This document shows positions 223 through 37,055 of a stretch of 64,000 nucleotides of DNA, piece by piece (within the stretch, counting starts at the first letter, position 1; every line of letters begins with the position of its first letter). The DNA comes from Candidatus Aenigmatarchaeota archaeon (GTDB taxonomy: Archaea > Aenigmatarchaeota > Aenigmatarchaeia > CG10238-14 > SCSR01): assembly GCA_039000165.1 (NCBI GenBank), contig JAWBTW010000002.1:19242-83241 (forward strand), written 5' to 3'. The notes beneath the pieces were generated by a model, which worked only from the letters and a program-made list of their open reading frames with translations, had not been told where the DNA came from and made no database searches. The position numbers and the translations under genes were made by a program.

Positions 223-729
223 ATGAACCTAAAAGCTTTACTTGAAGCTGCACTATTCGTTTCTGACAAACCTTTAAGCCTGGAAAAACTTTCAAAAGTA
301 GTTGGAATATGCTCAGAAGAAGAAGTTAAAAAGCTTTTAGAGGAGTTAAAAAAAGAGTTAAGTAAAGAAGAGAGAGGTATAGAATTGGTTGAAACACCAG
401 AAGGCTTTGAGTTGAGAGTTAAAAAAGAGTATAGGGAAAAAGTTGCTAAGCTTGCTCCTTTTGCTGATTTAAGTAATGGAATGATGAGAACTTTAGCAAT
501 AGTTGCTGTGAAGCAGCCTATAAAACAGTCTTTAATAGTAAAGTACCAAGGAAACAAGGCTTATGGTTATGTAGAAGCTCTAGAAAAAAAAGGTTTAATT
601 AAAACAGAAAAAGCCGGAAGAACAAAAATTATCACAACTACACCTGAATTTGAAAGATATTTTGGAAAAAGTACAGAGGAATTAAAAAAGATTCTAGAAG
701 AAAAAGTTTTAAGGGAAAAGAAAATATGA
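223..729 (+). CDS. scpB: SMC-Scp complex subunit ScpB
   Basis: LEAALFVSDKPLS, TLAIVAVKQPI and TTPEFERYFG motifs typical of ScpB. Confidence 0.92.
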   Translation: MNLKALLEAALFVSDKPLSLEKLSKVVGICSEEEVKKLLEELKKELSKEERGIELVETPEGFELRVKKEYREKVAKLAPFADLSNGMMRTLAIVAVKQPIKQSLIVKYQGNKAYGYVEALEKKGLIKTEKAGRTKIITTTPEFERYFGKSTEELKKILEEKVLREKKI

Positions 730-20421: not shown

Positions 20422-20868
20422 CTATTTATACACTACTATTTTTGTTGTCTCAAAAGCATCTTCCACAACTTTTTTGGGTTCTATTCCCCATTCTTTAATT
20501 AAGTCATGCGTTATATAGATGAAATATCCTTTATCCATTAGGTTTAGAGCTATAGTTACAAGATAGTAGGGATTAAAATTCACCAAAATTGCCTTGTTTA
20601 AAAGTTCTCCTGCGTATTCAGTAGGAAAGATTATTAGTTTCAACCTGTGCTTTGAGTATGGTGCAGGGATTTCAATTTCTTTTATGAAATCATCTATTGC
20701 CTTCTTCAATTTTTTACCTTCAAACACATCGATATAAATCTTAGCAACGTTTACTCTAAACCAATAGCCTTTCCATTCAGCATCAAAATGTGTCTTGCTT
20801 ATATCTTCGAACCTTATTCCTGGGAATTTTTTTCTTAAATTTTTTTTAACAAGATTTTTAATTAACAT
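20422..20868 (-). CDS. Hypothetical protein, possibly DUF1444-like
   Basis: VTIALNL...YITHDLIKEWGI...AF pattern recalled for DUF1444; unverified. Confidence 0.45.
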   Translation of the reverse strand: MLIKNLVKKNLRKKFPGIRFEDISKTHFDAEWKGYWFRVNVAKIYIDVFEGKKLKKAIDDFIKEIEIPAPYSKHRLKLIIFPTEYAGELLNKAILVNFNPYYLVTIALNLMDKGYFIYITHDLIKEWGIEPKKVVEDAFETTKIVVYK

Positions 20869-24120: not shown

Positions 24121-24380
24121 AGGCGAGCTAGCCAGGTAGCTTCGGCTTTGCATCAAAGCAAAGCTGAGGAAGTTCCCTCCATCCCTTAAGGTGCTGCGCA
24201 AGCAGCAGGCTGAGAAGCCTCTGCCAGAATCAGAAACGAGACCTTTTAGCTTCGCTAACCATGATGCGAAAGCTGAGTTGGGGCTAAAAGGATGAAACGG
24301 TCTGGCAGGCCTGGGATGCAAGTTTGAAACGCTTAGACAAATGCTACCAAAACATAAGAGGGGCTATGGCTAGCACGCCT
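24121..24380 (+). ncRNA. rnpB: RNase P RNA
   Basis: P1 AGGCG.GCTAGCCA/TGGCTAGC.CGCCT, GAGGAAGTTCCCTCC, AACATAAGAGGGGCTAT, GNRA-capped hairpins; GC-rich island. Confidence 0.9.
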
Positions 24381-28137: not shown

Positions 28138-29000
28138 GACAAATAATCCAAGAAACCGCTAAGCTTAAGGATTTCTTCGATATAATTTTTAAAATTCTCT
28201 CTTTCGGCCCTTATTTTCAAGGAATTCCCCACACTTAGAAGTTCTCTGTATGTTCTTTTCATCAAAGACTCTTCTATTTTCTTTTTTTGGCCGTTTGAGG
28301 CAAGCACTATTCTTTTTATTCCCTCTTCTGGAATCTCGTTCAATAAAATTTGCTTTGTTTCTTTATTTCTTAGAAGTTTTTGTAAGATTGAAGGATCGTT
28401 ATAAGAGTCAATAACGCAGAAAGTTAGGAAACCAAGCTCCTCACTAGAATTTGGAGAATACTTAAATTCCCAAGCCTTTGTGAAAGTTATCAAAGCTTCT
28501 TTAAAACTTTTAACCAAATTCTTCATTTGCTCGTTGTTAACAAAGTACCAATACCTGAGAAGGTTTGCTCCGTTCCTGTAATCAAGGTAGGTTTTAACTC
28601 GAGAAAGGCTGTCGCTTACTTCAATCCATTCCTGAGGCAGAAAAATTAACTTGTTTTCCCTTTGATTTTTGATGCTTGGAATCGTTTCGTAAATCATTTT
28701 CTTTACTGGTTGAAGAAAGTTTTCATATAAGTTATGCATTACAAAAAGTTCTTTTTGCATTGCTGGAATCTCTGTTACAAGTTGGGATGTTAGTTCTTCC
28801 AACTTTTTGAACTGAGTTGAAATGCTTTCGTACAAGGGTAAAGAGACTTCATAGCCTCTATCTTCGCTTAGGTAAGCGTCAAGCCATGTTCTGTCCCAAA
28901 AAACATCCAAAGAAGAAATTATCTGGTAAAAGCTTCTTTCATCTTCCAAGTATTTCTCCAGCAAACCCCAATTTTCAAACTTTATTTTTTCTTCTTTCAT
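28125..29000 (-). CDS. Hypothetical protein
   Basis: 291-aa ORF, helical composition; no recognised motif. Confidence 0.6.
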   Translation of the reverse strand: MKEEKIKFENWGLLEKYLEDERSFYQIISSLDVFWDRTWLDAYLSEDRGYEVSLPLYESISTQFKKLEELTSQLVTEIPAMQKELFVMHNLYENFLQPVKKMIYETIPSIKNQRENKLIFLPQEWIEVSDSLSRVKTYLDYRNGANLLRYWYFVNNEQMKNLVKSFKEALITFTKAWEFKYSPNSSEELGFLTFCVIDSYNDPSILQKLLRNKETKQILLNEIPEEGIKRIVLASNGQKKKIEESLMKRTYRELLSVGNSLKIRAERENFKNYIEEILKLSGFLDYLSYVL

Positions 29001-29095
29001 TCTTTAACCTTTTTTAAAATGAAAAAGATAACTCTTTTTTAACTTATATAAGGAAGTAAGTTTTTTAAAAGTTTCTGTTTGCTGACTTTTTTTAA

Positions 29096-29111
29096 TGTTA
29101 GACGTCTAACA
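29096..29111. repeat. 16-bp palindrome TGTTAGACGTCTAACA, copy 1
   Basis: Perfect palindrome, intergenic. Confidence 0.95.
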
Positions 29112-29145
29112 GAAAAGCAGCCAACAAACATTTCATAGATTTTTT

Positions 29146-29190
29146 TGGAATATTCCATACATAACTTATAAATACTTTATGGAATATCCT
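29146..29190 (+). promoter_or_regulatory. Operator-like palindrome TGGAATATTCCA plus a degenerate copy flanking a TATA box
   Basis: TGGAATATTCCA 29146-29157, TTATAAATA 29166-29174, TGGAATATCCT 29180-29190. Confidence 0.6.
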
Positions 29191-29196
29191 TAAATT

Positions 29197-29493
29197 ATGG
29201 AAAAAACCTTTGAAGAAATGCTTGAAAGCGTAAGAGTAAAGAAAGTCTCTCAACTTACAGCAAAAGTTTTTGAAATTATTCATTCTAGATGGCCCACAAA
29301 TCCGCTAGAAGTTGCTGAGATTTTAGGAGATAAAGGAAAAGAGAAAACGCTTTCTGCAAAGTACCTTTACCATTTTCGCAAGCTTAAGGAAATGGGGTTA
29401 ATAGACATGAAAAAAGTTGGAAACACTTACATAGCATGGCCTACTGAGATTGAAAAGCTTAGGGTTGTGCATGAATTATTAAAAGGGTTGTGA
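29197..29493 (+). CDS. Winged-helix DNA-binding protein
   Basis: PTNPLEVAEIL...YHFRKLKEMGLIDMKKVGNTY wHTH pattern. Confidence 0.7.
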   Translation: MEKTFEEMLESVRVKKVSQLTAKVFEIIHSRWPTNPLEVAEILGDKGKEKTLSAKYLYHFRKLKEMGLIDMKKVGNTYIAWPTEIEKLRVVHELLKGL

Positions 29494-29502
29494 GGTGAGA
29501 GA

Positions 29503-30039
29503 ATGGGGATAGCTGTTATGTTGAAAAAACTTTTGCTTGGAAGGGCTTTTTCTGCTGAAGAAGGAAGGGTTACGATTTTGGGAAGATATAACGTAACTTT
29601 AGTGGAAAGTTGTGGATTTGCGTATCTTCATCAGAAAATATTTGAAGAACTTGGAGAAAAAAAGGCTTTTAAAATTTTAATGGAAGCTACAGAAATTGCA
29701 ATCGAAAACGCAACAAAAGCATTTGGACTAGTACCTTTTTTTATGAGCATAGAAAAACTTTTACCTTTAACAGATTTTTATGGATTAGGGAAATTTAGCG
29801 TAATTCACAAAGAAGAAAATGAAAAAAAAGTTGTATTGTTAATTAAAGTTGAAAATTCTCCACTTACAGAATATGCCAAACAAAAATGGGGAAAGAATTC
29901 AAAAATATGTAAAATAGTAGAAGCAAATTTAATTGTGACGGCTAAACTTATCTACAAAAAAACACCAAAAGTAGAGGAAATTTCCTGCTACACTAAAGGT
30001 GCTCCTTATTGTACATTTCGTGTAGAAATAGAAAAGTGA
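29503..30039 (+). CDS. V4R (4-vinyl reductase) domain protein
   Basis: YGLG.F, NSP, IC, C-terminal EISCYTKGAPYCTF. Confidence 0.8.
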   Translation: MGIAVMLKKLLLGRAFSAEEGRVTILGRYNVTLVESCGFAYLHQKIFEELGEKKAFKILMEATEIAIENATKAFGLVPFFMSIEKLLPLTDFYGLGKFSVIHKEENEKKVVLLIKVENSPLTEYAKQKWGKNSKICKIVEANLIVTAKLIYKKTPKVEEISCYTKGAPYCTFRVEIEK

Positions 30040-30044
30040 TTTCT

Positions 30045-31496
30045 ATGATTGAAAAAATAGCATCTTGGTATGTTAAAAGAAAAAGAAATGAAATAGCAAA
30101 AAAAGTGAGAAAAGCAATGCTTTCCATTCCATTCTACAAACAACAAATTAAAAAAAATTCAATCGATTTACATGAAGTAAGAGAAATCAACTCAATAGAA
30201 AAACTTGATAAATTTCTTCAAAAACATAAAATAAATTGGTTAGAATCTACCGAACTAATGAGAAATGATTTTTCTTCTCATTTAAGTCTCGCTCCTACAA
30301 ATAAAAGAATATGGGTGCAAGTATCTTCTGGCTATAGTTTGGTAGAAAAATTGAGAAGTGGAGAAAATTTTTTAGAAAGTGTACAAAAATTTAAAAGAAA
30401 AAAAGTAGCCTTTACTCAAAAAGATTTAGAACTTGTGATAAAAGAAGTTTATCTACGTGGGGCTAAAAGAATAGCCTCAAATGATTCGATACCAACTATT
30501 TCTATTTTTTCCAGAATGTATATTTATGGTGGTTCAGGAACATATCCTTTTGCAGCTCTTGTAAGAGTATCACAGAAGTTTCCTTTAAGAATTTTACCCT
30601 ACGGTGAACCGTTAAGCCAGGAACAACTTTGTGATTATGTACTTGATTCCGTAGAGAATAACACTAACTGGATAATCACTACACCATCAATTTTAAGCGA
30701 CATAGGTAGATTTATGGTAGAAAATAATCTAAGGTACAGGAATCTAAGGTATGTAGGTATGGGTGGATTTAAACCAAGTAAAGAAGTTGTAAATCTAGGA
30801 CATGAAATAGGAGCTAAAATAATTATAGACGCTTACAGTGTTCAAGAATGTATGCCACTCGGTTGTATAGCCTCTGGAACTATATCAAGTGAAGACAAAA
30901 ATTGGGAAACTAATGAAGGATTAATGGTTATGGGAAATTTGTGTCATGTAAGAGTAGTCGATAAAAATGGGGAAAACGTTAGTGAAGGTGAAGAAGGAGA
31001 AATAAGAATAACTTCACCCTTTGAAGGAACGTTTTTAATTGACTATGCTCCTGGTGATATCGGTAAACTTTTAAGTTATACTTCTAGTGTCAGTTTAGAT
31101 AGTTCTAGGGTAAATCTTCCTTTTCCTTTACTTTCCTATGACATAAGAAGAAAAGAAGAAAATGAATATGTAAAGATAAAAGAGTATCCAGTTTCTGTTG
31201 GCATTCTAAAAGAAATCTTAACATCTTATGTTGATTATAATTTTGCGATTTGCAAGCCACAAACAAAGGGAGAACTGCTAATATTAATTCCAAGTAATAT
31301 TGAAGAGAGAAATTATGAAGAAATGTGTAAAAAGATAAGATATACAGTTTGCCCTTTACGATATAGCCTCCTTAGATTCAAAAAAATAGACGAGAGTAAA
31401 CTTAAAAAAATTGTTTTCCCAAGTTTACACCACAAGCCACACAATCTTATCCTCTCGCCCTCAAAAGAACTAGAAAGTGAGCTCTATGCCAGCTAG
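30045..31496 (+). CDS. Divergent PaaK-like adenylate-forming (ANL) enzyme
   Basis: IPFYK, degenerate P-loop VSSGYS, TTPS, DAYSVQEC, EGEIRITS, DYAPGDIG. Confidence 0.65.
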   Translation: MIEKIASWYVKRKRNEIAKKVRKAMLSIPFYKQQIKKNSIDLHEVREINSIEKLDKFLQKHKINWLESTELMRNDFSSHLSLAPTNKRIWVQVSSGYSLVEKLRSGENFLESVQKFKRKKVAFTQKDLELVIKEVYLRGAKRIASNDSIPTISIFSRMYIYGGSGTYPFAALVRVSQKFPLRILPYGEPLSQEQLCDYVLDSVENNTNWIITTPSILSDIGRFMVENNLRYRNLRYVGMGGFKPSKEVVNLGHEIGAKIIIDAYSVQECMPLGCIASGTISSEDKNWETNEGLMVMGNLCHVRVVDKNGENVSEGEEGEIRITSPFEGTFLIDYAPGDIGKLLSYTSSVSLDSSRVNLPFPLLSYDIRRKEENEYVKIKEYPVSVGILKEILTSYVDYNFAICKPQTKGELLILIPSNIEERNYEEMCKKIRYTVCPLRYSLLRFKKIDESKLKKIVFPSLHHKPHNLILSPSKELESELYAS

Positions 31497-32190
31497 CTTA
31501 ACTGATTTGCTCTGGGAAATCTATCCATTTTTTTACGACTCCCTAAACAACTTTGCTCCATACAAAAAAATGATAAGAGATACTGCTGAAAGCTTAAACT
31601 TTAGTAAAGGGAAGAAATTTCTTGACGTTGGTTGCGGAACAGGAAATTTGATTCAATATCTAGTTAAAAATTCTAAGGAAATCGAGGTTTGGGGTATAGA
31701 TGCTTCAGAGCAAGCGCTTAAAATTGCCTCAAAAAAAATTAAAAATTCAAACGCTAACGTCAAGCTTTGCCAGTACTATTTTGAAGAAAAGCTTCCTTTT
31801 AATGATAACTACTTTGACGGAATCGCTGCTGTTAACTTTATAAACTACTTAAGCCCAAGCTCTTTACAAAATTTTGTAAGGGAAGCGAGGAGAATTTTAA
31901 GAAAGGGGGGAAGGCTAAGCTTAGTCTACACAAGCGAAGTAGAATACTTTAAGGGAAAAAGCGGCTTTAAGTACTCTTTAAAAGAAAAACCGAAACAAAC
32001 GATTTTATCCCTTCCTTTCTGCGTGGCTGTTGGCTTGATGAACATTCCCATGAAATTAAAAGTCAACCTTATCCCTTATTCTAAAACTTATGTAGAAAAA
32101 CTTCTTGAGGAAAACAACCTCAAGATCCTTAACACAAAAACAACTTATTATTCTCATAGTACCTTGCTAACAACTAGCGAAAAAATTTAA
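31486..32190 (+). CDS. Class I SAM-dependent methyltransferase
   Basis: LDVGCGTG, GIDAS, LPF.DNYFD, RILRKGG. Confidence 0.9.
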   Translation: MPASLTDLLWEIYPFFYDSLNNFAPYKKMIRDTAESLNFSKGKKFLDVGCGTGNLIQYLVKNSKEIEVWGIDASEQALKIASKKIKNSNANVKLCQYYFEEKLPFNDNYFDGIAAVNFINYLSPSSLQNFVREARRILRKGGRLSLVYTSEVEYFKGKSGFKYSLKEKPKQTILSLPFCVAVGLMNIPMKLKVNLIPYSKTYVEKLLEENNLKILNTKTTYYSHSTLLTTSEKI

Positions 32191-32197
32191 AAAACTT

Positions 32198-32211
32198 TTG
32201 GAATATTCCAA
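32198..32211. promoter_or_regulatory. Palindrome TTGGAATATTCCAA upstream of the transglutaminase gene
   Basis: Same core as 29146-29157. Confidence 0.6.
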
Positions 32212-32239
32212 TTTATCTTTTAACAAACAAATTAATTAT

Positions 32240-32830
32240 ATGTTTGAACCTCCAAAAGGTTATGAAAAATATTGCGAACCAACTTTTTTGTGCGAATCTA
32301 ACCTGCCAGAAATAAAAGAGCTAGCCCAAGCTTTAGCAAAAGATAAAAAAACTCCTGAAGAAGCTGCTAGAGCATTTTTTTATTGGGTAAGGGATAATGT
32401 TGCTTGGAAAGTAGAAGAGATAGTTGGTGCTAAGGAAACGCTAAAAAGAAACCCTATGCATGGAGTATGTGCAGATAAAGCTAATCTCTTCATAGCTCTT
32501 TGCAGAGCTGTTGGAATTCCTGCAAGGTATCTTTTAATATTTAGATGTCAGCTTAACGCTAAGGTAAAGGATTTTCCAAAAAAAGTTGGGCATGTAGCTG
32601 CTAAAGTTTACTTAAACAATGAATGGAAAGTTGTAGATCCAACTTTTGGAAAGGATACGGAAAAGCTAATTCCTTTAAGTGAGTTTGACAGACCAAGCTG
32701 GAAAAGAATTGCTGGAGTCTTGAGAGTAAGAGAGCTTTCTGTTTCCTTAGCTTTATTTTCCATGCTTATTCTAAGGTTTAGTCGCTCTAGCCTAAAGATG
32801 AAAGAATTGATAGAAAGTTTGAGAAAATGA
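32240..32830 (+). CDS. Transglutaminase-like domain protein
   Basis: GVCADKANLFIALCRAVGIPAR, HV, VDPT triad; ATG at 32240. Confidence 0.88.
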   Translation: MFEPPKGYEKYCEPTFLCESNLPEIKELAQALAKDKKTPEEAARAFFYWVRDNVAWKVEEIVGAKETLKRNPMHGVCADKANLFIALCRAVGIPARYLLIFRCQLNAKVKDFPKKVGHVAAKVYLNNEWKVVDPTFGKDTEKLIPLSEFDRPSWKRIAGVLRVRELSVSLALFSMLILRFSRSSLKMKELIESLRK

Positions 32831-32842
32831 AAAGGTTGTTAA

Positions 32843-32858
32843 TGTTAGACGTCTAACA
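32843..32858. repeat. 16-bp palindrome TGTTAGACGTCTAACA, copy 2
   Basis: Perfect palindrome. Confidence 0.95.
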
Positions 32859-32862
32859 ATTT

Positions 32863-32983
32863 CTAAACTAACCACTTCCACAAAGGTTTGAAAACAATTT
32901 TTTTGTTTTCTATTTTTAATTGATCTTCATAATCCCAGGTTATCACTAGCAAATCCTTGCATTTAAGCAAGGAGGATGCTTTA
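32863..32983 (-). pseudogene. 3'-terminal fragment of an AAA_14/DUF4143 ATPase paralog
   Basis: Translates KASSLLKCKDLLVITWDYEDQLKIENKKIVFKPLWKWLV*, close to the C-terminus of 34359-35642. Confidence 0.9.
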
Positions 32984-32987
32984 AAAT

Positions 32988-33003
32988 TGTTAAATGTCTA
33001 ACG
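32988..33003. repeat. Degenerate palindrome TGTTAAATGTCTAACG (13/16), copy 3
   Basis: Direct comparison with the perfect copies. Confidence 0.75.
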
Positions 33004-33013
33004 TATAAAAAAC

Positions 33014-34294
33014 TCATTCACCCAAAACCTCAATTCCGTTCATGTAAGGAACCAAAACTTTTGGAATTTTCACGCTCCCGTCTTTTTGCTGGAAGTGTTC
33101 GAGAATGGCTAGCATGGTCCTGCTTGTCGCTAAGGCAGTAGAGTTTAAAGTATGGACAAAACCTTTTGGTTTTTCTCCTTCCTTTTCTCTAAACCTAATG
33201 TTAAGCCTTCTTGCTTGGTAATCTGTGCAATTAGAGTTTGAGCCTATTTCCCTAAACTTTCCGTCAACCATCCAAACCTCTGTATCGTACTTTTTTGCCG
33301 CTACTGTTCCTATATCTCCTGTGCAAACGTTTACTACACGGTAATGCAAACCTAAAGCTTGATAGAGCTCCTCACAATTTCTTTGCAGCTCTTCGTGCAA
33401 ATCCCAGGAATCTTCTGGCAAGCAAAAAATGAATTGCTCAACCTTGTTAAACTGATGCATCCTGAAAAATCCTTTCGTGTATTTTCCGTGCGTACCTATT
33501 TCTTTTCTAAAACATGGACTTATTCCAACAAACTTCAAAGGCAAGTCTTTTTTATTTAAAATTTCATTCATGAACATTGCTCCTATAGGATGCTCAGAAG
33601 TTGCTATCAAGTATAAATCTTCATTCTCTATTTTGTAAGTTACCATTTCAAAATCGCTTGGGTCTATCATTCCTTCGTAAGCTTTTCTGTTTATCATGAA
33701 AGGAGGCTCTACAGGAATATAGCCTTTTTTAATCATAAAATCTAGAGCAAACTTTTGAATGGCTAGATCGAGCAAAACCAATTCTTTTTTTAAGTAGAAA
33801 AAGCCTGCCCCAGCAACTTTTGCTGCCCTTTCTTGATCTACCAAACCCAACTCTAAAGCAATTTCTAGATGATTTTTTGGTTTAAAGTTAAACTTTGGTG
33901 GGGAACCAACTCTTCTTATTTCAACATTATCGTTTTCATCTTTACCAAAAGGTACAGAATCGTGCAAAATGTTCGGTAGCTTGAGCAAAATATCCCTTAC
34001 TTCTTTTTCCAGTCTGCTCGACTCTTCTTCCATTCTTTTTATTTCGTCATGGATTTTCTTAGCTTCGTTTAAGATTTTGCTTGTATCCTTGTTTTCTTTC
34101 TTCAACCTTGAAATTTCTAAAGTAAGTTTGTTCCTTCTGTTTCTCAGCTTGTTTATTTCTGTTTTGAGGCCACGCAATTTCTTGTCAAGCTCTAAAAGCC
34201 TTTCGAACATTTTCAATTTTTCCGGGTCTTGCCTCTTTTCCAAATTTTTCCTTACAAACTCTGGCCTCTCTCTTATCAATTTAATGTCAAGCAT
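33014..34294 (-). CDS. serS: Serine--tRNA ligase
   Basis: MLDIKLIRE, IATSEH, FRKE.G, RMHQFNKVE, SNCTDYQARRL, HTLNST. Confidence 0.95.
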   Translation of the reverse strand: MLDIKLIRERPEFVRKNLEKRQDPEKLKMFERLLELDKKLRGLKTEINKLRNRRNKLTLEISRLKKENKDTSKILNEAKKIHDEIKRMEEESSRLEKEVRDILLKLPNILHDSVPFGKDENDNVEIRRVGSPPKFNFKPKNHLEIALELGLVDQERAAKVAGAGFFYLKKELVLLDLAIQKFALDFMIKKGYIPVEPPFMINRKAYEGMIDPSDFEMVTYKIENEDLYLIATSEHPIGAMFMNEILNKKDLPLKFVGISPCFRKEIGTHGKYTKGFFRMHQFNKVEQFIFCLPEDSWDLHEELQRNCEELYQALGLHYRVVNVCTGDIGTVAAKKYDTEVWMVDGKFREIGSNSNCTDYQARRLNIRFREKEGEKPKGFVHTLNSTALATSRTMLAILEHFQQKDGSVKIPKVLVPYMNGIEVLGE

Positions 34295-34342
34295 GTTTTT
34301 ACCTTAATTTCAATTAATTAAAGGTTGCTCAAATATTTTCTT

Positions 34343-34358
34343 TGTTAGACGTCTAACA
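34343..34358. repeat. 16-bp palindrome TGTTAGACGTCTAACA, copy 4
   Basis: Perfect palindrome abutting the ATPase stop codon. Confidence 0.95.
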
Positions 34359-35642
34359 TTAAAAAAAGTCAACCAATAACCATTTCCACAAAGGCTTAAA
34401 AACAATTTTTTTGTTTTTTATCTTTTGTTGACCTTCATAATCCCAGGTTATCACTAGCAAATCTTTACATTTAAGTTCTTTGCTTGCCTTTATTAAAGAC
34501 CTAATTTCCCTTTTCTCAACCTCATCTTTACTAGAAGCATAAGTAACTTGAATTAGTTGATTGATTTTTAAACCTTTTTTCACGGCAAAATCTACCTCAA
34601 AATCGTTCGATTTGAAGTAAAAAATTTCATCAACTTTTCCTTCAAACTTTTTTCTCAAAAGAGAAATAGCTACCAAGTTTTCCATTTTTTTCCCAAAATC
34701 TTTTGAAAACCTTGGTTCAATCGCAAAGTAAACATTATCTACCAAATAAATCTTTGCAGGATACTTTGCTCTTTCTCTGTACTTTAAAGAAAATCTTTTT
34801 ATCGGAAAAACAAACAAAGCCTCTTCCACATACCTCAAATAATTCGCTAAGGTTTTTTTGCTAACTTTCAAGCCGATCGATTTCAATTCTTTTTCAATTT
34901 TTGTTAATGAGATATAGGAGGAAGAGTTTGCTATGCAATACCTAACAAAATAATCCATAAGTGTAACATTTTTTATTTTAAACCTTTCTATCAAATCCTT
35001 AAAAAATACGGTAGTAAAATAGGTTCTTGCTATTTCAATTTTCTTGTTTTTCTCGTCAGCAAGAAGAATTTCAGGATACCCTCCAAAATCAAGAAATTCT
35101 TTCAAAAGCATTAAAATTTCACCAACCTTTGCCTTAGAAATTTCTTCCCTAACTACAAACTTTTTTAGCTTAAGAAACTCTTTAAAGGTAAAAGGAAAAA
35201 TTATATAAGGAATACACCTTCCCCTTAGCTCGGTTGAAATCTCTCTGCTTAAAAGTTTTGAAGAAGAACCAGAAATTATTATTTTATATTTTTGGAAATT
35301 GTGCAAAGTTCTAACGAACGAAGGCCATTCTTCTAACTCTTGAATTTCGTCCAAGAAAAGAAAAACTTGATTTTTAAACAGTGAATTTACTTCCTTTAAA
35401 AACTCAGAAACACCAATTTTTCTTACTCTTGGGTCGGTAAAATCTATGTAAACAACATTATCTTTGGAATTATTCTTTTCAAAGAGCTCTTTTATTAGCT
35501 GGAACATAAAATAGGTTTTACCAGCTCTTCTTGGTCCTATAAGGGAAACTATGTGCTTGTTTATCCATACCTTTAAATCTCTCTCGATTATATCTTGCGG
35601 TAGTTCTTTCTCTTTCCACTCTAGTAAAACCTCTCTTAGCAT
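34359..35642 (-). CDS. AAA_14 ATPase with DUF4143 (PD-(D/E)xK-like) C-terminus
   Basis: GPRRAGKT, LDEIQ, SGSSS, GGYPE, KIYLVD, EVDF..IQV. Confidence 0.9.
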   Translation of the reverse strand: MLREVLLEWKEKELPQDIIERDLKVWINKHIVSLIGPRRAGKTYFMFQLIKELFEKNNSKDNVVYIDFTDPRVRKIGVSEFLKEVNSLFKNQVFLFLDEIQELEEWPSFVRTLHNFQKYKIIISGSSSKLLSREISTELRGRCIPYIIFPFTFKEFLKLKKFVVREEISKAKVGEILMLLKEFLDFGGYPEILLADEKNKKIEIARTYFTTVFFKDLIERFKIKNVTLMDYFVRYCIANSSSYISLTKIEKELKSIGLKVSKKTLANYLRYVEEALFVFPIKRFSLKYRERAKYPAKIYLVDNVYFAIEPRFSKDFGKKMENLVAISLLRKKFEGKVDEIFYFKSNDFEVDFAVKKGLKINQLIQVTYASSKDEVEKREIRSLIKASKELKCKDLLVITWDYEGQQKIKNKKIVFKPLWKWLLVDFF

Positions 35643-35654
35643 AAAAGAAATATA

Positions 35655-35683
35655 GGAAACAAAAATATATATTTTTTGTTTCC
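35655..35683. promoter_or_regulatory. Inverted repeat over the TATA element of the ATPase promoter
   Basis: GGAAACAAAAA-TATATAT-TTTTTGTTTCC. Confidence 0.55.
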
Positions 35684-35712
35684 CTTAGGGAAATTTTAGA
35701 AAGTTGGTTTTT

Positions 35713-35728
35713 TGTTAGACGTCTAACA
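35713..35728. repeat. 16-bp palindrome TGTTAGACGTCTAACA, copy 5
   Basis: Perfect palindrome upstream of the ATPase. Confidence 0.95.
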
Positions 35729-35757
35729 CAAAAAATCCTTATTTATACTTTTAAATG

Positions 35758-35994
35758 CTAACTTTCGTTTAAATTTTCATAATTTTTATTCTCTCCAAAT
35801 TTCTTTTTTCCTAATAAATAGCCTAGAATAGCTCCATAACAAAAAGCAAAATCTTTTTCTTTTCCTTCTGCTAGCTTTATTCCGAACTTTAAGCCTTTGA
35901 TAAAAGAATCCAAGTATTCTTTTCCTTCTGCCTCTTCAAAAAATTTTTCCATCAAAACTTTTGTAAAATTTAAGTATCTTTTTTCTTCTTCCAC
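35758..35994 (-). CDS. Hypothetical protein
   Basis: 78-aa ORF, GTG start. Confidence 0.5.
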   Translation of the reverse strand: MEEEKRYLNFTKVLMEKFFEEAEGKEYLDSFIKGLKFGIKLAEGKEKDFAFCYGAILGYLLGKKKFGENKNYENLNES

Positions 35995-36043
35995 AAAGAA
36001 AAAATGAAAGAAAAAGTATTTAAGTACTTGAAAAAACTCAAAA

Positions 36044-36298
36044 TTATTCCATCTTTTTCCCTTCTTTATATCCTCTTAAAAGCTTCTCCATCTCTTTTTC
36101 ATATTCTTTTCTAAGCTCAGAAATCTTGCCCAAATAATCTAGCGTTAAAGACCTTATTTTTTCCTGAGCTTCGCTTCTACCTTCTAAAAACTCCCTAAAC
36201 AAAGAATAAGCTATGTTACCAGCCAGAAGAGAAGAAATCAGACTTTCCCAATTCCTCACGTAATCCAAATCCTTCTTTATTTCTTCAAAACTTCTCAT
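36044..36298 (-). CDS. Hypothetical protein
   Basis: ATG at 36298 (MRSFEE...), coiled-coil-like. Confidence 0.55.
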   Translation of the reverse strand: MRSFEEIKKDLDYVRNWESLISSLLAGNIAYSLFREFLEGRSEAQEKIRSLTLDYLGKISELRKEYEKEMEKLLRGYKEGKKME

Positions 36299-36329
36299 AC
36301 TTTTAAAATAAAGAATAAATTTTAAAAAA

Positions 36330-37055
36330 CTATTCTTTCTTAACAACAATTCCTTTATTAGTAATTTCTATGGGATAAATGTCAGTTCCATGCTTAGTGT
36401 GACGCATCTTTCTTATAAGCAAGCTTCTTGGTGTTCCTCCTCCTGTAAATTCCAAATAATGCAAAACTATTACTGCATCTACTATAAATTCCTCAAAACC
36501 AAATCTTGATAAGGCTTTTGTTGCTTCTGGTATCTCTCCAACTATCAAGCTTGTTACTCCATACTGTTTTAACCTCATTATTAGCTCGAAAACCTTTGCC
36601 CTTAGCTCAGTAGGGTCAGAAGCCTTTGCAGCAAAAGCTACCAAGCTTAAACCATCTAGAACAAAACGAGTAGCGTTTACTTCCTTTATCCTCTTAAAAA
36701 TTTCATAATCCAAATCATCACAAGATTTAGGAAAAACATACTCTATTATACATCTTCCTTGTTGAATGTAAGGCCTGAAGTCCATCCCAAACTGCAAAGC
36801 TTGCGAGATTATATCTTCTGCTGGCTCTTCCAAGGTTATGTAAACTACATTTTCACCCTTTTGCAAGCCATGCCAAATGTATTGAGTACAAAAAATCGTT
36901 TTTCCTGTTCCTGTTTCTCCTGCTATCAAAACTGCTGAGCCTTTAACAAAACCTCCTTCTATTAGTCTATCCAAACCAGGAATTCCTGTTTCTACCCTTT
37001 CAGGTTTTCCTTCCTCTTTTGGTTTTTCAGAAACTTTTTTCATCTTTTTCTTCAT
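36330..37055 (-). CDS. KaiC-like RecA-superfamily ATPase next to the pilus locus
   Basis: TGIPGLDRLIEGG, GETGTGKT, IRKMR. Confidence 0.9.
   Translation of the reverse strand: MKKKMKKVSEKPKEEGKPERVETGIPGLDRLIEGGFVKGSAVLIAGETGTGKTIFCTQYIWHGLQKGENVVYITLEEPAEDIISQALQFGMDFRPYIQQGRCIIEYVFPKSCDDLDYEIFKRIKEVNATRFVLDGLSLVAFAAKASDPTELRAKVFELIMRLKQYGVTSLIVGEIPEATKALSRFGFEEFIVDAVIVLHYLEFTGGGTPRSLLIRKMRHTKHGTDIYPIEITNKGIVVKKE

Follow-up and report, generated by a model that had tools for sequence, protein, structure and literature searches.

Known neighbours and the element under study

In archaea, the interval between the TATA box and the start codon is the classic position of a repressor. The DNA-binding domains of papillomavirus E2 and of EBNA1 are ferredoxin-like dimers that read palindromes with their helix 1. 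In the pdif modules of Acinetobacter plasmids, and in the integrative mobile elements exploiting Xer (IMEX) found at dif, XerC/D sites flank gene modules. To our knowledge, almost no regulators or recombination systems have been characterised in DPANN archaea. A 64,000-nucleotide stretch of DNA from one of these, a Candidatus Aenigmatarchaeota archaeon (the whole stretch is called "the window" below), carries repeated copies of a 16-base palindrome, TGTTAGACGTCTAACA. This 16-mer is read here, tentatively and with a probability of about 0.45, as the operator-like duplex site of a dimeric, sequence-specific DNA-binding protein, most likely a 69-residue protein of the Cas2 fold, and as a site that travels with gene modules.

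Distribution of the palindrome

The window holds four perfect copies of the 16-mer and one with three mismatches (Table 1), and a scan allowing up to three mismatches finds no other match in the 64 kb. Shuffled versions of the window yield 0.22 matches on average at the same threshold, and none of 100 shuffles reaches five. Gene bodies are free of all copies. An earlier reading of the sequence (below, the original prediction) had described these five copies, their intergenic placement and the lack of others in the 64 kb. It had also listed the contents of the intervals (a winged helix-turn-helix (wHTH)-V4R module, an ATPase remnant, serS and an AAA ATPase), a scpB gene in the window and a flip of gene orientation near 33 kb. 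All of this is reproduced; gene strand and GC skew both switch near 32-34 kb, the skew following the strand.

The window corresponds to positions 19242-83241 of contig C2 of the source assembly, G000 (783 kb, 25 contigs, 91.6% complete). Genome-wide, G000 carries 16 perfect copies, one copy with one mismatch and two with three, spread over seven contigs (C1, C2, C6, C7, C8, C10, and C21), and a reversed control pattern has no copy there against 16 for the 16-mer. The motif, described as a cluster in the original prediction, is not special to the window. Looking for it in relatives had been proposed as a check: all five other genomes of the genus carry it, and GTTANACGTNTAAC occurs in 25 of the 61 genomes sampled from the family, with lineage variants having G, T, C or A at the N positions. 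Candidatus Aenigmatarchaeota relatives possess 3 to 29 copies of TGTTA-N-ACGT-N-TAACA variants. In an exact scan of one genome per species, multi-copy contigs are found only in records labelled Candidatus Aenigmatarchaeota or uncultured archaeon, and bacteria show single chance matches only. Public sequencing runs containing the window stretch are labelled hot springs metagenome. The palindrome is real and lineage-wide. Neither this motif nor a solo Cas2 that binds DNA is described in the literature searched.

Anatomy of the site and position relative to genes

The flanks of the palindrome are unconserved, except for a symmetric T-tract/A-tract bias. On the 5' side of each half, T makes up 55-65% of the bases from -9 to -3, and A hence does so on the 3' side. 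Within 14 nt on the 5' side, 72 of 164 half-flanks have a run of at least five T and 21 a run of at least five A, and T-tracts are equally frequent on flanks directed toward gene starts (16/28) and gene ends (23/38). A single strand could form only a weak hairpin (-3.1 to -5.3 kcal/mol; z -1.0 to -2.5). Since the flanks are unconserved save for these tracts and the hairpin is weak, a duplex is a more fitting target of recognition than a folded structure.

Among the 16 perfect G000 copies, nine lie 36-48 nt from the start of a gene or tRNA, with an A-rich stretch resembling a B recognition element (BRE) and a TATA box in between, and two more have starts at 70-95 nt. Many copies are located 0-12 nt past a stop codon, and a few overlap final codons. 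The dyad symmetry and fixed core-promoter position of transcription-factor operators are therefore both found, the latter at these nine copies and at the double site of the Cas2-fold gene described below. Upstream of the tyrosyl-tRNA synthetase (TyrRS) gene, the site is perfect even in an ortholog locus of 70% identity, the flanks of which have diverged beyond alignment.

The solo Cas2-fold protein

The promoter of the 69-residue protein's gene, located outside the window, displays the following order: a perfect palindrome, 4 nt, a AAAAATTTTTAAG box, 2 nt, and a one-mismatch copy that ends 4 nt before the ATG. A third copy is found 40 nt past the stop codon. The double site around the TATA box is kept in G000, in its sister genome G001 and at locus L073, and the arrangement is also kept, with a 45-nt spacing, at L072 in another genus.

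Structurally, the protein is modelled with a predicted local distance difference test (pLDDT) score of 95 and a β-α-β-β-α-β topology, and its top PDB matches in Foldseek (3exc, 2ivy, and 5h1o) are all Cas2 proteins. An Asp at the end of strand 1 is conserved (D8, invariant in 19 orthologs), and together with the fold it places the protein among Cas2-fold members. A homodimer model passes with a mark of 0.60, a value attained by 20 of 30 solved pairs and by one of 23 single chains, against 0.00 for the best of three controls. The runs agree on at least 94% of contacts, with a partner pLDDT of at least 92, and helix 1 lies outside the modelled interface, where it is left free. This pass may reflect likeness to solved Cas2 dimers.

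The 69-residue protein's gene neighbours neither cas1 nor a CRISPR array. Cas1 is found in G000 only on contig C19, and in none of G001, G006, G073, and G051. The C19 gene (G000:C19:5090-5944, 315 bits) lies on a contig largely without counterpart in contig G001:C1, and it probably marks a CRISPR-Cas locus of G000 that is absent from G001.

Gene-specific palindromes of the Cas2-fold family

Of 1.84 billion representatives, the family profile retrieves 130 at E<=1e-3 and 61 at E<=1e-10, almost all of 60-80 residues, and some genomes have several members, with up to 16 matches. The genes of this family are linked to palindromes of their own. In 21 of 25 family genes, from 14 genomes, a palindrome of 14-22 bp ends 0-24 nt before the start codon and comes immediately after a conserved TATA box resembling ATAGAAAAGTTTATAT. 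At most one position in each palindrome breaks the symmetry, and ~18 different sequences are represented. They have in common the frame TGT-NNN-ACGT-NNN-ACA, centred between AC and GT, the inner triplet varying by gene. Promoter palindromes are absent from the four others (L203, L207, L208, and L209). As a background, 400 kb of genome G010 contain only 20 perfect palindromes of at least 14 bp with at least four G/C. The three paralog operators located in these 400 kb are single-copy, two further ones being on other contigs, and the TGTTATACGTATAACA-type operator has five copies there.

Protein and palindrome also covary. Protein identity follows operator similarity across the family (rho 0.25, Mantel p 0.01), and all four genes with RQ in helix 1 have TGTC half-sites, while the gene of one TGTC operator has KK instead. 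Phyletically, 22 of 35 genomes with a family member carry the motif versus three of 26 without (Fisher p 5e-5, a test that overstates, the genomes being kin and not independent). The three motif-bearing genomes without a member are 69-81% complete.

In G010, one paralog with its promoter and palindrome (G010:C1:76871-77257, L194) is a single-gene insertion between genes that are adjacent on contig C3 of G000. The same promoter-plus-palindrome is found reversed at G010:C2:63709, before a gene for a 553-residue protein.

Proposed mechanism and its weighing

In the proposed mechanism, the 16-mer would be one lineage variant of the family frame, read as a double-stranded operator. Two of its copies bracket the promoter of the candidate binder, one just upstream of BRE/TATA and the other between TATA and the start codon, the interval typical of archaeal repressors. 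Within the genus, this operator would have been copied to 16-21 places between transcription units. At promoter-proximal copies, as at serS, a bound dimer could modulate the recruitment of TFB/TBP or act as a boundary. The sites would be inherited and lost along with gene modules, and for that reason they appear to partition the region. The original prediction offered three readings; that of a regulator's operator is the best supported, through the double site on the solo Cas2-fold promoter and the gene-specific palindromes of the family.

Several observations weigh against this proposal. That the Cas2-fold protein would bind the 16-mer we infer from gene linkage, covariation, and phyletic pattern, and the effect of such binding is conjectural. 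The protein itself scores below the curated Cas2 cut-offs (PF09827, 20.8 vs 23.8 bits; TIGR01573, 21.1 vs 24.5 bits), and the family profile has no sequence match among solved Cas2 chains. Having 16 of 19 G000 copies perfect is unusual for a regulon, and four of the 16 perfect copies have convergent gene ends on both sides and no start close by. The neighbouring genes are functionally mixed (TyrRS, SerRS, TFB, tRNAs, TatD, DUF4870, ATPase), and in other genera the flanking genes differ, save for the Cas2-fold gene and DUF488. Among family genes, those of L207-L209, which lack a palindrome, come from motif-free genomes, and 13 genomes have a family member yet no motif. In G010, the paralog whose operator is near-identical to the 16-mer is only ~44% identical to the G000 protein, and its sister paralog, to which it is 75% identical, has a different operator triplet.

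A wider proposal, which should be held as doubtful, extends the operator to genome plasticity. The solo Cas2-fold proteins of 67-72 residues, a small lineage-specific family, would be sequence readers of duplex DNA, each with a private promoter palindrome, and one such palindrome would have spread through Aenigmatarchaeota chromosomes, its bound or cut copies serving both as promoter-proximal operators and as junctions of module gain, loss, and inversion. The proteins might even act as nickases, the active-site Asp of Cas2 being retained at the interface of the dimer model. If true, protein and site would together form a novel system behind genome modularity, with a possible glimpse of a pre-CRISPR Cas2.

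Whatever the reach of the mechanism, the finding provides a directly testable pair, one 69-residue protein and one 16-bp site. If the two bind, a Cas2-fold protein would join the known DNA-reading folds, and a genome-wide motif of an archaeal family would be explained. One could then also ask whether the gain and loss of genes in very small genomes is organised by such sites. Should the binder be another protein, the sites are still useful as markers of module junctions and of assembly breaks in metagenome-assembled genomes.

Gene modules and recombination

G000 and G001 share 90.7% nucleotide identity over 570 kb. Four segments of G001 are missing from G000, each with two flanking sites in G001 where G000 has one. 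They hold AcnX; Yip1; a three-gene FAD-oxidoreductase module; and orf69b, a small open reading frame (ORF), with a second ATPase. The last segment belongs to the array of the window itself, where it separates the ATPase from serS. Indel junctions thus coincide with the sites, and the palindromes might instead be crossover sites of a site-specific recombination that inserts, excises, or inverts modules, with crossover in the central ACGT, as an archaeal chromosomal analogue of pdif modules or of integron cassettes. This reading is unlikely, although much speaks for it. About 0.06 two-site indels would be expected by chance instead of four, and all seven differences in site presence between G000 and G001 coincide with a change in gene content. 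Immediately inward of its two sites, the AcnX module carries another 12 bp of inverted repeat, AGAAACTACTTT (G001:C1:207421-209141; L009:4421-6141), but such extended inner repeats are found in only this one of 34 site pairs. The second ATPase module (95% amino acid identity) occupies a different slot in L074, beside the 98-residue ORF of Table 1. TFB, which lies between two sites, is 69% identical in L098, versus 91% and 83% for its neighbours. Also in L098, homology to the orf69 locus stops exactly at a site and resumes 39 nt on, in a gene located elsewhere in G000 and G001. However, the L098 junction lies at the TFB2 stop and not at the C7 site, and the reciprocal junction of this rearrangement is not found in G003, G004, or G005 (80-84% complete).

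Contig ends and synteny breaks tend in the same direction. In fragmented relatives, 13 of 49 perfect sites lie at most 300 nt from a contig end, against 4.5% expected (a manual tally of the rows listed). Synteny breaks affect five of 13 site-bearing intergenic regions versus 64 of 434 others (p 0.036), a count made automatically after dropping high-scoring segment pairs that overlapped or were shorter than 500 bp or below 78% identity; by eye, eight of 16 sites are at synteny breaks. Yet 64 of the 69 intergenic regions with breaks lack a site. In several events a site is found at one boundary only, as in the replaced TatD promoter or in the ATPase deletion, whose junction lies inside homologous 3' ends. 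The same two-site pattern would result if 16-bp repeats recombined to delete what lies between them, or if whole transcription units were transferred along with their operators. Dedicated crossover sites also do not explain why a double site is conserved on one promoter.

No recombinase shares the distribution of the motif. In genus g20, XerA is present in five of five genomes but the motif in none of the five, and G006 has 23 sites yet no XerA ortholog was found there, only a tyrosine recombinase of 34% identity. No serine recombinase was found in G000, and 16 bp are short for the core of a tyrosine recombinase site. The original prediction had also suggested recombination sites of a cassette system. 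Indels bounded by two sites and the presence of the same cassette in different slots agree with it, but integron features are missing and most indels are without sites. Partly supported, this reading may be a rival to the operator or a second role of the sites.

XerA itself is present in G000 (G000:C6:43058-43870; NCBIfam recomb_XerA_Arch, 285 bits vs a cut-off of 220). A site is found 0.4 kb from xerA in G000, G001, and G003, and ~1.5 kb from it in G062 and G073, a proximity seen post hoc and maybe due to chance.

Other module boundaries have been observed. An intron-containing tRNA-Ser(tga) lies between two perfect sites at G000:C6:33177-33409 (L002:3177-3409), and four relatives differ in the genes that separate this tRNA from the diphthamide synthase gene. 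At G000:C10:20441-20455, a 15-bp degenerate palindrome, TGTTAGATACTAACA, precedes the perfect site at 20496 by ~40 nt and may be a site in decay; in G001, this position is occupied by two sites with the Yip1 module between them. On the same contig, a tyrosine integrase of 432 residues with a zinc ribbon directly follows tRNA-Glu (G000:C10:20806-21603; L005:15668-16966) and is not there in G001; this locus is likely an integrated element. Contigs C3, C11, and C17 of G000 have no nucleotide match to G001:C1, and none carries a site. Over window positions 28500-36500, public contigs are short unitigs only, with 4-5x depth spikes on the repeated ATPase 3' ends, and some joints connect paralogous ATPase copies.

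Selfish repeat, terminator, and centromere

The palindrome could also be a selfish or neutral dispersed repeat without host function, carried between genes in small promoter/operator modules or in mini-Cas2 cassettes. Its copies are perfect while their flanks differ, Cas2-fold members occur as single-gene insertions (the G010 example) and in up to 16 copies per genome, and the G010 promoter-plus-operator has a reversed copy before another gene. This explanation is nevertheless improbable: a transposase partner was not found, Y1_Tnp being absent in G000, G006, G073, and G051, the spacing to start codons is constant, and the TyrRS upstream site is perfect despite its diverged flanks.

Still less probable is a bidirectional terminator or insulator made of T-tract, hairpin, and A-tract. 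The excess of T-runs on the 5' side and the many copies just past stop codons would suit it, but the T-tract is as common toward gene starts as toward gene ends. Moreover, the stem has 6 bp and is weak at 37 C, for an organism from hot springs, two loci are divergent promoters, and paralog operators sit between TATA and the start codon.

A parS-like centromere or SMC-loading site, as put forward in the original prediction, is highly improbable: the 16-mer matches the parS consensus TGTTNCACGTGAAACA quoted there at 12 of 16 positions, and the G073 variant TGTTACACGTGTAACA would match it at 14, scpB is in the window and the sites are clustered, but ParB_N (PF02195) has no match in G000, G001, G073, or G008 (one in G006), the only Orc1/Cdc6 gene over the cut-off (Cdc6_C) lies on the site-free contig C3 of G000 (C2 of G001), the copies all sit outside gene bodies at fixed distances from gene ends, and their positions are unconserved between genera. 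On the 802-kb contig G001:C1, GC skew is noisy, with no clean replichore pattern.

Gene setting in the window

The five copies in the window are interspersed with modules of one to five genes (Table 1). Within the five-gene module, the V4R-like ORF reaches 30.4 bits with V4R, slightly below the Pfam cut-off of 31, and the 98-residue putative wHTH ORF has no match in a Pfam search. Just upstream of the latter, at window positions 29148-29195, a separate inverted repeat, GGAATATTCCATA ... TATGGAATATCC, surrounds a TATA-like box; it is probably a local operator of this ORF's module, distinct from the 16-mer. The final ~130 nt of the ATPase gene are present twice in the window (Table 1). The remnant copy comprises 39 codons with 87-90% identity (tblastn), and the ATPase paralogs are ~42% identical overall against ~90% over their last 39 codons. 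Elsewhere in the window are found an archaeal RNase P RNA (24123-24378; Rfam, 135.8 bits) and five tRNAs. At the palindrome sites, the Rfam scan shows no RNA family.

Table 1. Palindrome copies and associated genes; positions are those of the window unless a contig is named
Feature	Position	Strand	Setting
scpB	238-690		
Perfect copy 1	29096-29111		divergent intergenic region; 95 nt to start of 291-residue ORF (-), 85 nt to start of 98-residue putative wHTH ORF (+)
Five-gene module between copies 1 and 2	29197-32830	+	98-residue ORF, V4R-like, AMP-binding-like, S-adenosylmethionine (SAM) methyltransferase, transglutaminase-like
Perfect copy 2	32843-32858		12 nt past stop of transglutaminase-like gene; no gene start close by
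AAA_14/DUF4143 ATPase 3'-end remnant	32859-32987	-	duplicate of 34359-34490
Degenerate copy (13/16; three mismatches)	32988-33003		10 nt past serS stop; one-mismatch copy at same place in sister genome G001
serS (seryl-tRNA synthetase)	33014-34294	-	copy 3 lies 48 nt upstream of start; A-rich BRE/TATA-like stretch between
Perfect copy 3	34343-34358		0 nt from ATPase stop codon; 48 nt upstream of serS
AAA_14 + DUF4143 ATPase, single-gene module	34359-35642	-	between copies 3 and 4; sister genome has a second such module in next slot
Perfect copy 4	35713-35728		70 nt upstream of ATPase start; 29 nt past stop of 78-residue ORF
69-residue solo Cas2-fold gene	G000:C1:79257-79466	-	outside the window

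Comparison with known systems

For archaeal dif, PMC11840125 gives TAA-N6-8-TTA as the most conserved feature, and 11-bp arms, a 6-bp spacer, the inner TAA-N6-8-TTA, and a single copy are the criteria taken from PMC11840125 and PMC2958812. By these criteria the 16-mer is not dif, as it reads TTA-N6-TAA, is without the TAA-N6-8-TTA feature, and has 16 copies; nor does XerA co-occur with it in g20 and G006. A separate scan for a canonical dif (TAA-N6-8-TTA, at least 10/11 arm matches, kept in G001) yields one unconvincing AT-rich candidate at G000:C1:59702. As in pdif modules and IMEX, short inverted-repeat sites delimit modules of one or a few genes that differ between relatives. The sites described here, however, are 16 bp long, fully palindromic, and chromosomal, belong to a DPANN archaeon, and do not co-occur with XerA.

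Integrons are likewise rejected. No IntI is present, the sole Xer-like recombinase scoring 235 vs 265 and 154 vs 435 bits on NCBIfam integron-integrase models, and a 16-bp palindrome with unconserved flanks lacks the 50-150 bp attC architecture. With integron attC and archaeal integrons (PMC9668308), the locus shares cassette-like single genes between repeated sites and a half-site, GTTAGAC, that fits GTTRRRY, but each of its modules comes with a promoter of its own and can face either way. The lineage variants GTTATAC and GTTACAC break the RRR of this core. The original prediction had pointed to the integron core and to a MetJ-box, AGACGTCT, in the centre of the motif. Neither resemblance is kept, the former being lost in these variants and the latter in ATACGTAT/ACACGTGT, and both consequently look coincidental.

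As for repetitive extragenic palindromic (REP) sequences and their REP-associated tyrosine transposases (RAYT), Y1_Tnp (PF01797) is absent in the four genomes named above and the hairpin is weak. Two other candidate partners have been discarded. The 98-residue putative wHTH protein is not found in G006 and G073, the genomes with most sites. The DUF4143 ATPase is present in nine of nine genomes with at least eight sites but also in seven motif-free genomes, and its phyletic association (Fisher p 0.0014) is weaker than that of the Cas2-fold family.

Bacterial parS, the ParB site, is similarly a 16-bp palindrome with an ACGT centre, TGT...ACA ends, and near-perfect clustered copies. In contrast, no ParB was found here, and the sites are not near orc1/cdc6 and never inside genes. 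With Cas2, the CRISPR adaptation subunit, the candidate binder shares the β-α-β-β-α-β topology, a modelled homodimer, and the conserved Asp that closes strand 1. It differs by its family, a small one of its own with members of only 67-72 residues, which is solo, not next to cas1 or CRISPR, and below the curated cut-offs.

The operators of autoregulated archaeal repressors resemble the 16-mer in being dyad-symmetric 16-bp sites with a CG centre, with copies upstream of BRE and between TATA and the start codon of their own gene, and extra copies before other promoters. The candidate here would differ in possessing a Cas2 (ferredoxin-like) fold instead of a helix-turn-helix or a ribbon-helix-helix, and its putative operators in being perfect instead of degenerate, a quarter of them off promoters. 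Papillomavirus E2 and EBNA1 provide, by analogy, the precedent for a ferredoxin-like dimer on a palindrome.

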